Below are positions 30,001 through 33,000 of a DNA stretch of 64,000 nt, in pieces (positions within the stretch are counted from its first letter, which is position 1; every line of letters starts with the position of its first letter). The DNA lies in assembly GCA_038733315.1 (NCBI GenBank), contig JAVYPJ010000001.1:146770-210769 (forward strand), given 5' to 3'. A program made the position numbers. This stretch comes from Candidatus Aenigmatarchaeota archaeon. GTDB taxonomy: Archaea > Aenigmatarchaeota > Aenigmatarchaeia > CG10238-14 > SpSt-28.

Positions 30001-33000
30001 GAAGAAGAAAAAATTTCTCTAAAAGATATTAAAGGAATTGGTCCTAAAACTCTCAAGAAATTAGAAGAGTTAAAAATAAATGATCCTATGATAATTGCTA
30101 CAAGTAATCCAAAAGAATTATCTATGATATTAGAAATAAGTGAAGAAAAAGCGTTAGAAATTATAAATAATGTGAGAGAAGCCTTGGGTTTTAAAGTTGA
30201 AACTGCTGATAAGGTTTTAGAGAGAAGGATGAAAATGAAAAAAATAACTACATCTTCTAAAAAATTAGATGAACTCTTAGGTGGCGGAATTCCAACGCAA
30301 GCTATAACAGAAGCTTTCGGTATGTATGGTAGTGGTAAGACTCAATTAGCTTTCCAGTTAGCTATTAATGTACAATTACCTGAAAGTGATGGTGGGTTAG
30401 AAAAAACCTGTTTGTTTATAGATAGTGAGGGTACTTTTAGTCCGGAAAGAATTCTCGAAATAGCAAAAAACAGAGGATTAGATGCTGAAAAAGTATTAAA
30501 AAATATTTATGTTGCAAGAGCTTATAGCAGCGATCATCAAGTTTTATTAATAGAAAAATCTGTTGATTTAATCAAAGAAAAAAACATTGGACTTATTGTA
30601 ATTGATTCTATAACATCTCATTTTAGAGTTGATTATATGGGTAGAGGGGAATTAGCTGAGAGACAACAAAAATTAAATAAACACTTACACCAACTACAAA
30701 GATTAGCAGATGCATTCAATTTAGCAGTATATATAACTAATCAGGTAATGGCAAGGCCAGATATAATTTTTGGTGATCCAACTCAACCTGTTGGTGGCCA
30801 TGTTTTAGCACACATTTCTTTTTATCGACTATATCTTAGAAAATCTAAGCAAAACCTAAGAATTGCCAGATTAGTAGATGCTCCTAATTTACCTGAAAGA
30901 GAAGTTGTATTCCAAATAACAGAAAGAGGTTTGGAAGATTATGAAGAAAAATGATTATATATAGGGGAGCGGAAGCAGTTATTAGGAAAATTAATGAAAA
31001 TGAAATAATAAAAGAGAGAATAGAAAAAAAGTATAGAATAAAAGAACTTGATATTAAAATAAGAAAAGAAAGAAATAAAAGAGAAGCTAAAATATTAATA
31101 GAATGTAAAAGAATTGGTATAAATGTTCCTAGAGTTTTAGAAATAAATGACTTTTCTATGAAAATGGAATACATCAATGGAAAAAGATTAAAAGATGTTA
31201 TAAACAACAAAAATTATAAAGAATTTGCTACTGAAATAGGGAAAATTGTTTCAATACTACATTCGAATAATATAGTTCATAATGATTTAACTCTATCAAA
31301 TCTCCTACTCTATGATAATAAAATTTATCTAATCGATTTTGGTTTGTCATATAACACAAATAAGATAGAAAAAAAAGCTGAAGATATTTTAACTCTTTAT
31401 TATTCAGCAAAATTCATAATAGGAGAAAAATTTGAAGAATTTTTTAAAATGTTTGTTGATGTCTATACTAAAAACTATTCTGAAGGTGGTAAAGTTATAG
31501 AAAGGATGAAAAAAATACTATCAAGAGGTAGGTATTCTTTGAAAAACAATGGCAACTAAAAAAGATTTATTAAATTTTTTATTCAAAGAAAAACCTTTAA
31601 AAGTTCTTTTAGTACTATCAGATGGTCTTCCTAAAAATATAACACAAATCTACAAAAAAGTTAGAACAACATACTCACATACACTAAACATATTAAGTGT
31701 TATGTATGATTTGAACATAATAGAGTTTGAAAAAAGAGGTAGAGATAAAGTTGTGAGATTAACAAAAAAAGGTGAAAAGATTGTTGAAGCATTAAAATCC
31801 ATATTATCAGATTTTCTATGAATTTTTAGATATTTTTTATGAATATTCTTACATTTTTTATGAATATTCGCAAAATTTTTATGAATTTTCAGAATTTTTT
31901 TATGAAAAATCAGAGAATTTTTGAAAAGTTTCGGAAGTTATTTTGTATAAATGTTTTATAAAATCGTAACTTTCTTATTTAAAACATTGAGATAAGAAAG
32001 TTAGAGTTTGTGTTTTATTGTTATGTGTCTATTTCATAAACATATAGTAACAACTCTTTTATAACATTGTTATAATAAAAATTAATAAAAATGTTTTTAT
32101 TATTAATGTGTTTATATAAAGAGTGTAAAAAATAATAAATATTACTCTTCATATAATTAAACGAACTTAAATAAGAATCTTCATAAAAAATATAATTTAT
32201 GAAAAGAGGAAGACCATCTAAAAGGTTTGAAATATATGAATTGATTAATGAGTATTTTAAAGAGAATCCTTATCCATCGAATGTTAATAAAATAGCTGAA
32301 TTTATATTTCAGAAAAGTAATAAAAAAATCAGTTGGAATACATTAAAAAAATATTTGGAAGAATTAGTAAAGATAGATAGAATTAAAAGAATAATACCAC
32401 CTCATTCGAAAGATAGTTCCAAAACCGGTATAACCCTATATTATTTAGAAGTAAAAAAAGAAAATGAATAGATCCTTAGAATTGATTAAAAAGGGATATT
32501 TAATTCAAGATAAAAATCTTTCAGATTTGTTATCAAAAATTAGTGACGAAGATTTTAAAAAAATATTAGATGTTTTACCAAAAACAACAGAACCAAAAGT
32601 TTTGAAAAAAGAAGATATTTTAAGATTGATGGGTAAGAATTATAACATAAAAATACTAACTCCAAAAGGTAAAGAAAAAATAACAATTACCGATGTTATT
32701 AACATAATGAAATCGAGATTCGACTTTTTTTTACCTATTTTAAAGAAAAAATTATCTTTCTTTAATTTATTATCAATTAATAAGATTTCAAAAAAATATA
32801 GAGTTTTTTCGATAATAGGAATTGTTTATAAAATTTACGATAATAAAATAACGTTAGAAGATATGACAGGAAAAGTAGAAGTTGTTGTTGAGGATAAAAA
32901 TCTACTAAAATACATCGAAGAAGACTGTGTAATTGGAGCTAAATGTTATTGGAATAATAATGTAATAATAGCTAATGAAATTATTTTCCCAGAATATGAG

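Follow-up and report, generated by a model that had tools for sequence, protein, structure and literature searches.

An array of phased 21-bp repeats ahead of the replicase operon of an Aenigmatarchaeota archaeon is a candidate chromosomal replication origin

Where on its chromosome does an Aenigmatarchaeota archaeon begin to replicate? The literature that we searched held no description of a replication origin for Aenigmatarchaeota. The question arises at a non-coding spacer in the 733-kb assembly of Candidatus Aenigmatarchaeota archaeon, at 31822–32198 of the 64,000-nt window (the whole stretch of DNA analysed, to which all positions without a contig name refer). The first-pass annotation read this spacer as oriC, the single origin of the chromosome. 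We lean, if only slightly, towards a broader reading, in which the spacer is the core of a chromosomal origin, probably the main one, and also the autoregulated promoter region of the replicase operon that follows it.

The most conspicuous element of the module is its repeat array. Tandem Repeats Finder places it at 31811–31922, with a period of 21, 5.3 copies and a score of 117, the highest in the window, and it is the best non-CRISPR array of the genome among periods of 15–45. A separate repeat search returned the same five head-to-tail 21-bp units on the plus strand (boxes at 31813, 31834, 31855, 31876 and 31897; spacing 21, 21, 21 and 21), as first annotated. Each unit consists of a T5-6 tract followed by TATGAAnnTTC. 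The box sequence TTTTTATGAANNTTC occurs unchanged at 31834, 31855 and 31876 on the plus strand and at 32175 on the minus strand, and with one mismatch at 31897 and two at 31813. With at most one mismatch allowed, the window holds 11 matches to TTTTTATGAANNTTC, as against 2.1 +/- 1.6 in shuffled sequence, where none of 100 shuffles reached 11. The whole-assembly search agrees with the earlier count of four exact matches, every one of them within the module spacer, and with a looser core the module is the densest cluster of the joined chromosome (five copies; runner-up three).

The exact reversed box (32175..32189, minus strand) lies 10–24 nt before the ATG of the next gene, g00165, and makes up a short inverted repeat with the half-site TTTATGAA, which overlaps that ATG. 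A weaker reversed copy occupies 32136–32156, 32 bp upstream of the exact one; both fit the one or two opposed copies proposed in the first pass, and the reported inverted arms (22 nt, 95% complementary, 320 nt apart) were reproduced. Opposed boxes are thus observed on both sides of an A+T-rich stretch, five in the plus sense and one exact and one weak in the minus sense. The array has what is expected of iterons, namely head-to-tail repeats of the 17–22 bp class, in helical phase, with A+T-rich DNA alongside. To describe it as iterons rather than ORB boxes, as was done at first, overlooks the convergence of the boxes on the A+T-rich spacer, which is the usual layout of an archaeal origin.

The spacer itself spans 377 bp at 83.3% A+T and ranks second of 119 gaps of at least 150 bp. 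The 257 bp that separate the array from the reversed box are 82.5% A+T, in line with the roughly 250 bp at 82% first noted, and the 250-bp A+T maximum of 0.836 stands at the 99.87th percentile of contig C1. The most A+T-rich part, at 32060..32140 (90–92% in 60-bp windows), is on this composition a candidate DNA unwinding element. At 32060..32074 lies a perfect palindrome, TATAACAnTGTTATA, which recurs in the same spacer of other families (loci L105, L115, L124, L141 and L152). Perfect matches number only three in this genome, and none lies within a gene; besides the one in the spacer, one is 8 nt ahead of a gene for a 112-aa HTH protein and another some 60 nt ahead of the gene for a cysteine desulfurase. 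Nearer the array, at 31967..32003, a 17-nt inverted repeat (3 nt between arms, 88% complementary) is followed by T-rich sequence and may be where transcription of the operon upstream terminates.

All genes described here lie on the plus strand. A replication/recombination cluster upstream is headed by a gene for an RPA-like single-strand-binding protein (28937..29995, 352 aa; Pfam Rep_fac-A_C 5.3e-10, OB-fold 3.8e-6), behind which come the genes for a RadA recombinase (29998..30954, 318 aa; Rad51 7.3e-91) and a small Bud32/RIO-type kinase (30951..31559, 202 aa; Pkinase 2.2e-14, RIO1 4.2e-14). The last gene before the spacer, g00163 (31549..31821, 90 aa), has a stop codon that abuts the first box and weak winged-helix matches in Pfam (HTH_45 2.2e-5, below cut-off). 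It shares 17–25% identity, in a forced alignment, with conserved winged-helix genes of 126–150 aa at the same position in other families, and has no detectable paralogy to g00165.

Downstream, g00165 (32199..32471) encodes a 90-aa winged-helix protein with the N-terminus MKRGRP, which we take to be AT-hook-like. Residues S45, W46, N47, T48 and K51 are invariant in an alignment of 22 sequences of its family. The AlphaFold model (pLDDT 80.8) predicts three helices plus a wing, that is, a single winged helix. Searched with Foldseek, it resembles generic winged-helix regulators (PadR/LmrR, Fur, MarR), and the winged helix of Orc1 appears only at rank 42; its sequence profile has no match below E 0.5 among solved structures. 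With the profile search empty and the Foldseek matches generic, no family could be assigned. The protein is a candidate for the one that binds the boxes.

Behind g00165 come a DP1 homologue and PolB, as in the first-pass annotation. The DP1 homologue (32464..33441, 325 aa; PolD small subunit/B-subunit family) matches structures of the PolD small subunit with a 15-sequence profile (E 8e-30), and the family B DNA polymerase (33509..36226, 905 aa; DNA_pol_B 1.9e-118) carries, in its translation, a CxxC...CxxC motif at the C-terminus. DP2 was found neither in this genome nor in the five others searched. The polymerase fits the 'B6' PolB of Aenigmarchaeota with a DP2-like C-terminal domain, as far as the available part of PMC7544198 describes it. 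Excerpts of the same paper and of PMC12680538 report the passage from PolD to a eukaryotic-type PolB–DP1 complex for Aenigmatarchaeota and otherwise only for Baldrarchaeia.

Adjacency of orc1/cdc6, one criterion for an archaeal oriC, is not seen at the module. The genome has a single such gene (C2:91483-92457; 172 bits against a cut-off of 181), about 271 kb away when measured across the unclosed gap of the joined circle, much as first estimated (270 kb). It sits in a tight operon (gaps of 6–13 bp) with no non-coding DNA on its flanks, and a search beside it for origin-like repeats found only two-copy repeats at chance level. Nor does orc1/cdc6 adjoin the module elsewhere; it lies 133–140 kb from it in genomes G067, G118 and G119.

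The module is conserved across Aenigmatarchaeota, always ahead of a small winged-helix gene of presumed AT-hook-like type, a DP1 homologue and PolB. Within the genus, the box occurs in all seven genomes, this one included, and the 21-bp array with an opposed copy in six of the seven, again with this one, which bears out the genus-wide pattern first described. At order level outside the genus, a small ORF directly precedes the DP1 homologue at 19 of 23 loci, and Tandem Repeats Finder detects a 21–22-bp array at seven of the 23. Phylum-wide, an array with a period of 15–45 lies at most 700 bp upstream at 23 of 50 loci, and the period is 20–22 in most related loci. The convergent layout is kept as well: on the far side of the spacer the boxes have one sense and next to the gene the other, facing inwards, with far-side to gene-side counts of 6:1 (L105), 3:1 (L107), 1:4 (L142), 2:2 (L150, by eye) and 0:5 (L116, strict; one far-side copy with one mismatch by eye). 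Between loci the main array may change its sense and convergence still persists; the distance from array to gene differs among families, with values of roughly 90 to 270 bp.

We fitted single change points to strand-corrected GC3 skew within +/-100 kb in seven genomes of five lineages. In this genome (G000), the maximum-likelihood change point falls at C1:180,244 (support at dLL<2, 173.9–183.2 kb); the module lies at about 178.8 kb (spacer 178.6–179.0 kb). A second skew boundary is found 357 kb from the first on the joined circle. The first-pass annotation had put a single skew minimum exactly at the module and the maximum on the opposite side. A change point within about 5 kb and the distant second boundary support it in part, but in place of a V the curve shows skew on its right arm alone (r = 0.148 +/- 0.007) and a flat left arm (0.007 +/- 0.011). 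The all-sites regression is also one-sided, and the undetrended cumulative curve is lowest at 28–34 kb, with a flat plateau until about 183 kb. AT3 skew does not change sign across the module (-0.031, -0.049 and -0.015). A simple bidirectional origin predicts neither one-sided skew nor same-sign AT3 skew, and skew on one side only does not demonstrate a single origin from which two replichores run as mirror images.

What is new is the recurrence of this co-location. In five of the seven genomes and three of the five lineages, the change point and the module are within 2 kb of each other: besides this genome, the change falls at 233,743 in the congener G004 (module at 235.75 kb), at 215,439 in the distant lineage G119 (214.1 kb), at 222,751 in G067 (223.3 kb) and at 301,366 in G063, inside the spacer. 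By chance, a match this close within the 160-kb search range is expected at about 0.025 per lineage, and the support intervals are as narrow as 1 kb in G067 and 2 kb in G119. In a whole-contig fit with two boundaries for G067, the best boundary falls at 187 kb and the module comes second (dLL 1.5). No skew change was detected within 40 kb of the module in G118 (dLL 16.2), and over the 250 kb examined in G096 the skew is noisy, with no usable boundary.

Could the module be a control region and nothing else? The boxes would then be operators of g00165 or g00163 and the palindrome the site of a second regulator, together setting the level or timing of winged-helix/DP1/PolB transcription; replication would start elsewhere, and the nearby skew change would merely reflect where the replicase operon lies. 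The constant tie to one operon, seen in the small ORF before the DP1 homologue at most order-level loci, suits this view, as do the reversed box just before the g00165 ATG with its half-site over the ATG, the palindrome before two unrelated genes, the modelled likeness of g00165 to PadR/MarR/Fur-type regulators and the absence of a skew change at the module in G118. It leaves unexplained, however, why the skew changes so close to the module in three of five lineages, and the narrow support intervals in G067 and G119 leave little other non-coding DNA for a separate origin. Nor does it give a reason for five to seven phased sites, for their distance of up to 270 bp from the promoter or for a main array that flips its sense with convergence kept. 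We consider a purely regulatory role somewhat unlikely. An operator role, which the first-pass annotation had listed as a refutation of an origin, probably holds as well, because the reversed box lies 10–24 nt before the ATG and the spacer holds a promoter-type palindrome.

The direction of the skew change differs between genera. It has the polarity of an origin in G000, G004 and G119, the last with a clean two-sided V (five 20-kb windows, r = -0.03 to -0.18 on the left and +0.06 to +0.23 on the right). Genus g33 (G067 and G063) shows the polarity of a terminus, the G- and T-rich strand running into the module; r is about +0.12 along the arc 662->0->223 kb and then about 0 in G067, and in G063 it runs from +0.03 to +0.08 left of the module and from -0.02 to -0.06 right of it. 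One-sided skew is shared by G004 and G067. Since the rule of a G-rich leading strand is unvalidated in Aenigmatarchaeota, polarity alone cannot decide between origin and terminus. PolD content was considered as the cause of the flip and rejected, DP2 being missing from all six genomes searched.

Gene orientation offers a second measure. Genes are directed away from the module in G119 (134/220, p=0.001) and, more weakly, in G000 (119/212, p=0.086) and G118 (217/388, p=0.022); genus g33 has no bias there (104/222 and 114/229). A whole-genome scan of G000 finds the best origin-like centre at 150–200 kb and the worst at 500–520 kb. For G067, the best co-orientation centre is at 60–80 kb, near its own orc1/cdc6 at 89.7 kb.

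These data bear on the proposal that the module is a replication terminus or polar fork barrier, at which a small winged-helix protein on phased boxes stops forks and the skew change is their meeting point. In Bacillus subtilis, RTP stops forks at Ter sites beside its own gene. The module resembles that system in having a small winged-helix gene directly behind opposed, presumed binding sites at a change of strand skew, and the terminus polarity in G067 and G063 points the same way. It differs in its at least five phased copies, where RTP uses paired A/B sites, and in its origin polarity, which G004 and G119 share with this genome; the profile search of solved structures revealed no sequence relationship of g00165 to RTP. 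A search for dif, made with a Thermococcales consensus that may be too distant (taken from the accessible part of PMC4640148), gave no site in G000 and one poor match with three mismatches each in G067 and G004. With the genes of G119 and G000 pointing away from the module, a terminus here would impose head-on transcription, and we regard this proposal as quite improbable.

Plasmid partition centromeres usually have phased direct repeats upstream of the gene for a small site-specific DNA-binding protein. By analogy with that layout, and with replichore boundaries of either polarity at the module, the array could be a centromere-like site that organises or partitions the chromosome through a small adaptor protein, neither starting nor stopping replication, but the operon encodes a DP1 homologue and PolB and no partition NTPase, which makes this very improbable.

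The genes at the second skew boundary of G000 (C2:141-155 kb) are housekeeping ones (AlaRS, deoxyhypusine synthase, S17/L14, EF-2 and eRF1), with none for replication or recombination. The nearby 1.2-kb 'gap' at C2:156,649-157,882 is not a repeat region and reads like coding sequence missed by the ORF caller. Around the remaining skew boundaries of G000 and G067, no further cluster of boxes was found, and Tandem Repeats Finder reports no array at 650–675 kb of G067.

Conserved repeats at a switch in strand composition make the module probably the place where replication of the chromosome starts. The initial oriC reading is upheld to that extent by the replication-type skew change in this genome and its congener, by the V of the distant lineage and by gene orientation; its claim of singleness is not, and the opposite polarity in G067 and G063 and the lack of a change in G118 count against it. 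From the observed arrangement we infer the following course. Five same-sense boxes two helical turns apart, with one or two opposed boxes, converge on the palindrome-bearing A+T-rich stretch, and a sequence-specific protein would occupy the phased boxes along one face of the helix. The likeliest binder would be the AT-hook-like winged-helix protein g00165, alone or with Orc1/Cdc6, reading the T-tract in the minor groove and TATGAAnnTTC with its recognition helix. The resulting nucleoprotein array may destabilise the 90%-A+T stretch, so that MCM could be loaded and forks leave. Occupation of the reversed box at the gene start would feed back on transcription of the winged-helix/DP1/PolB operon.

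Such an origin would have partial counterparts in other archaea. The oriC island of Thermococcales, as given in the available parts of PMC1904270 and PMC4640148, runs oriC–cdc6/orc1–dp1–dp2 and has ORB and 13-bp mini-ORB repeats. On that description it shares with the module short boxes, some inverted, around A+T-rich DNA upstream of DP1 and replicative polymerase genes, with recombination and replication genes nearby. It differs in that the gene adjoining the repeats here encodes a 90-aa AT-hook-like winged-helix protein and not Cdc6/Orc1 (271 kb away), the catalytic subunit is PolB and not DP2, and the boxes keep a strict 21-bp phase. Compared by eye, T5-6-TATGAAnnTTC(C) does not match the Pyrococcus ORB/mini-ORB core TTCC...GAA as quoted in the text portion of PMC1904270; GAA and TTC(C) are both present, in reversed order and with a different spacing. 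At oriC1 of Sulfolobus/Saccharolobus, ORB2 and ORB3 are opposed around an unwinding element with the UBP-bound ucm motif, according to the excerpt available of PMC12141716. Within the limits of that excerpt, the two are alike in opposed boxes that flank an A+T-rich element with a conserved central motif found at other intergenic sites too, and differ in that the motif here is a perfect palindrome with three copies, as against hundreds of UBP sites, and the initiator gene is not adjacent.

The phasing of the boxes also invites comparison with plasmids. In iteron-type replicons (such as pPS10, F, R6K and P1), helically phased repeats of about 20 bp follow one another head to tail beside an A+T-rich stretch, and the Rep protein, roughly three times the size of g00165, contains two winged-helix domains. 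The module is like them in its phased repeats, its A+T-rich stretch and an opposed copy at the presumed promoter of the neighbouring gene for a small, putatively DNA-binding protein, from which, by this analogy, autoregulation is suggested. It is unlike them in lying on a chromosome, beside an operon that encodes the replicase, and in an adjacent protein of 90 aa with one winged helix. A bolder version, which we think improbable, would have replication in Aenigmatarchaeota start at a plasmid-style iteron module and not with Orc1/Cdc6 at an ORB origin. A 75–100-aa AT-hook/winged-helix protein, co-transcribed with the eukaryote-like PolB–DP1, would bind the phased boxes, nucleate opening and perhaps recruit the replicase; boxes, binder, DP1 partner and B6 PolB would form a cassette, a mobile replicon that took over the chromosome, and the one-sided skew would reflect asymmetric or partly unidirectional forks.

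The one-sided skew and the flip of polarity between genera, if real, would point to an unusual mode of replication. If the module is the origin, in-vitro studies of this uncultured lineage would gain a defined and conserved stretch of DNA to work on, with a candidate for the protein that binds it, and Aenigmatarchaeota assemblies a marker by which they may be oriented and checked. The module would also be an example of an archaeal origin that lies apart from orc1/cdc6 and is linked instead to the genes of the replicase.

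The window, C1:146,770–210,769 of an assembly of 732,905 bp in seven contigs (27% G+C), contains a 377-bp spacer between two genes that each encode a 90-aa winged-helix protein, g00163 at window positions 31549–31821 and g00165 at 32199–32471. A tandem array in the spacer (31811–31922; period 21, 5.3 copies) has a TRF score of 117, the maximum in the window and the highest of any non-CRISPR array of period 15–45 genome-wide. Five plus-strand sites carry the box core, TTTTTATGAANNTTC: those at 31834, 31855 and 31876 are exact, 31897 differs at one base and 31813 at two. A perfectly matching minus-strand copy (32175–32189) lies 10–24 nt 5′ of the g00165 ATG, with a weaker reversed copy 32 bp upstream of it and a half-site overlapping the ATG itself; reversed box and array pair as 22-nt arms, 95% complementary and 320 nt apart. 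These four exact copies, all in the spacer, are the only ones in the entire assembly, and matches with at most one mismatch number 11 in the window vs 2.1 ± 1.6 in shuffled sequence (11 was reached in 0 of 100 shuffles). The 257-bp interval from array to reversed copy is 82.5% A+T. The spacer ranks second in A+T among 119 gaps of at least 150 bp, with a peak of 90–92% at 32060–32140; about ten other 250-bp windows of the genome are equal or higher.

Repeats of other kinds occur elsewhere. A second array of 21-bp period (window 56293–56374; 3.7 copies, TRF score 74, unit ATAAAAGTATTTTATCATAAAG) has no sequence relationship to the boxes. At C1:394,529–394,592, beyond the window, a 12-bp unit, ATTTTTGAAAAT, is repeated 5.4 times within the genome's most A+T-rich 250 bp (85.6%), where no skew change lies; also beyond the window, a CRISPR array (period 66–67, repeat about 30 nt) occupies C1:254,569–257,106.

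The box is present in all seven genomes of the genus, and six of them, including the one under study, have the 21-bp array with an opposed copy 5′ of the small gene. The adjoining DP1 homologue was detected in 89 of 118 genomes of the order; at 19 of 23 loci outside the genus a 74–104-aa ORF lies immediately 5′ of it, and at 7 of the 23 the spacer holds a 21–22-bp array. Two genomes (G100 and G098) have a core identical to that described here. A phylum-wide scan yielded 52 loci; 50 of these had sufficient sequence on the upstream side, and 23 of the 50 have an array of period 15–45 within 700 bp upstream. The boxes converge in all 11 spacers inspected by eye, with one sense on the far side and the other on the gene side, while their numbers vary (6:1, 3:1, 1:4, and 0:5 by strict count, with one copy at one mismatch), as does the distance to the gene (∼90 to ∼270 bp). 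Were the boxes purely an operator array, the maintenance of this convergent layout through flips in copy number would be unexplained.

Upstream of the spacer lie an RPA-like gene, radA, a Bud32/RIO-type kinase gene and g00163; downstream, g00165 is followed by the overlapping gene of a 325-aa DP1 homologue and then by a 905-aa family B polymerase (PolB) with a C-terminal CxxC...CxxC motif (DP1 homologue to PolB, 32464–36226). A 15-sequence profile of the 325-aa protein matches structures of the PolD small subunit, DP1 (E 8e-30), and searches for DP2 came up empty both here (genome 94% complete) and in five related genomes. The eukaryote-like replicase arrangement of Aenigmatarchaeota is already published in two reports: one describes a PolB of Aenigmarchaeota, ‘B6’, whose C-terminal domain is DP2-like, together with an inactive DP1 and loss of DP2 (PMC7544198), and the other a DP1–PolB interaction seen by two-hybrid (PMC12680538). 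The passages considered mention neither the small winged-helix gene nor the repeats; the supplements of PMC7544198 may list gene neighbourhoods.

The 22 g00165 orthologues that we aligned span the order; the alignment features MKRGRP at the N terminus, a third helix with an invariant S-W-N-T...K, and a conserved PHSK wing. We take the MKRGRP start to be AT-hook-like. The AlphaFold model is a three-helix winged helix (pLDDT 80.8) for which Foldseek returned generic winged-helix regulators only, the Orc1 winged helix ranking 42nd; a sequence comparison with solved structures gave no match. A minor-groove hook combined with a recognition helix would suit a box made of a T-tract and a specific core. 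In two aligned sequences, from loci L084 and L069, the RGRP start or PHSK wing is missing and the repeats deviate too, an anecdotal observation.

The spacer also carries a perfect palindrome, TATAACAnTGTTATA, at 32060–32074, which is also seen in spacers from several families. Exactly three perfect copies exist in the genome, every one intergenic; the other two, outside the window, lie 8 nt 5′ of an HTH gene (112 aa, oriented divergently to a radical-SAM gene) and ∼60 nt 5′ of a cysteine desulfurase gene (C1:285,271 and C2:138,551). Because all three are intergenic and two stand just before genes, the spacer holds at least one promoter-type regulator site. The three sites look like a small regulon that would include the polymerase operon and is perhaps Fe-S related. 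Between array and palindrome, an inverted repeat of 17 nt with a T-rich stretch after it (31967–32003) may be a terminator for the upstream operon.

The end of C1 overlaps the reverse complement of the end of C2 by 127 bp, which gives a joined sequence of 684,942 bp and 669 ORFs (C1 plus reverse complement of C2) with the window at 147–211 kb. One ORF of ∼26 kb spans C1:699–26,732, outside the window, and has a 27.5-kb counterpart in the congener G004 (C1, ∼60–90 kb). With r as half the difference between plus- and minus-strand genes in third-position (G−C)/(G+C), the joined sequence is flat from 0 to 183 kb (r = 0.007 ± 0.011) and from 540 to 685 kb (−0.015 ± 0.011); from 183 to 540 kb r is 0.148 ± 0.007 (z 21.8), positive in 12 of 12 30-kb windows. 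Offsets from regressing all-site raw skew on coding-strand balance (−0.004, +0.069 and −0.013) give the same picture, and AT3 skew keeps one sign chromosome-wide. By maximum likelihood, one boundary falls at C1:180,244, with a support interval of 173.9–183.2 kb that includes the spacer (ΔLL 1.1), and the second at joined coordinate 536,816. The first-pass annotation had read the iterons as the chromosomal origin, at the single minimum of strand-corrected third-position skew; since the spacer lies in this interval, its change point is real to within ∼5 kb, with the second boundary approximately across the circle from it, but the change is off/on rather than down/up. GC3 skew is one-sided in G004 and in G067, of another family, as well. 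We know of no standard replication model that predicts this.

A single change point was fitted within ±100 kb of the module (array, A+T-rich spacer and reversed box) on contigs of six further genomes. In G004 it falls at 233.7 kb vs the module at 235.75 kb (skew ∼0 to −0.03 on one flank and +0.11 on the opposite one). The distant G119, whose small protein is 35% identical and whose boxes are dispersed 2:2, shows a two-sided V at 215.4 vs 214.1 kb (left −0.03 to −0.18, right +0.06 to +0.23). For G067 the change lies at 222.75 vs 223.3 kb, and for G063, of the same genus, within the spacer at 301,366, both with terminus polarity; a whole-contig two-boundary fit of G067 prefers 187 kb, the module being second (ΔLL 1.5). 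The module is excluded as change point in G118, of an unplaced lineage (ΔLL 16.2; flat for 40 kb on each side), and the skew of G096, of the family of G067, is noisy and gives no usable change point. Skew thus changes within 2 kb of the module in five of seven genomes and three of five lineages (chance ∼0.025 per lineage), with origin-type polarity in two lineages and the opposite in one.

Gene orientation is a polarity mark independent of skew. Within ±100 kb, genes pointing away from the module number 134 of 220 in G119 (p = 0.001), 119 of 212 in the genome under study (p = 0.086) and 113 of 212 in G004 (not significant); G118, counted within ±180 kb, has 217 of 388 (p = 0.022), and G067 (104/222) and G063 (114/229) have no bias. 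Scanning the whole genome under study places the best origin-like centre at 150–200 kb and the worst at 500–520 kb, consistent with the skew; in G067 the best centre is 60–80 kb, close to its orc1/cdc6 at 89.7 kb. The sole good orc1/cdc6 match in the genome under study (C2:91483–92457; 172 bits, cut-off 181) is flanked by same-strand genes at 6–13 bp and so has no adjoining origin-like spacer, and neither this genome nor G067 has a skew change at orc1/cdc6. On the same contig (C2:150,017–153,679, L237:9017–12679, outside the window), the elongation factor 2 gene is split by a LAGLIDADG-domain intein.

Full-text literature searches, supplements aside, brought up no paper on an Aenigmatarchaeota replication origin among the matches listed. 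Two of those matches name the phylum: PMC5905446, which describes a Diapherotrites (DPANN) genome with classical skew and its origin beside cdc6, and PMC8579995, a hot-spring community study; the words DPANN, Aenigm- and Nanoarchae- are all absent from the Ori-Finder-Arch preprint.

Among the alternatives, a control region alone would accommodate the palindrome and the link to one operon but leaves the co-located skew changes of three lineages unexplained, and we consider it doubtful. A terminus or fork barrier would match the polarity of G067 and G063, against the origin-type polarity of two lineages, and is improbable. That the module is an organising site seems very unlikely. An origin and nothing more, in turn, leaves both the promoter-type palindrome and the tight link to one operon without explanation. 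Because each pure reading leaves facts unexplained and the two functions are compatible, we lean towards a module that is both a replication origin and an autoregulated control region for the replicase operon; the polarity conflict in the genus of G067 and G063, the flat skew of G118 and the one-sided skew keep our confidence moderate. Iteron plasmids and many origins show the same compatibility of the two functions.
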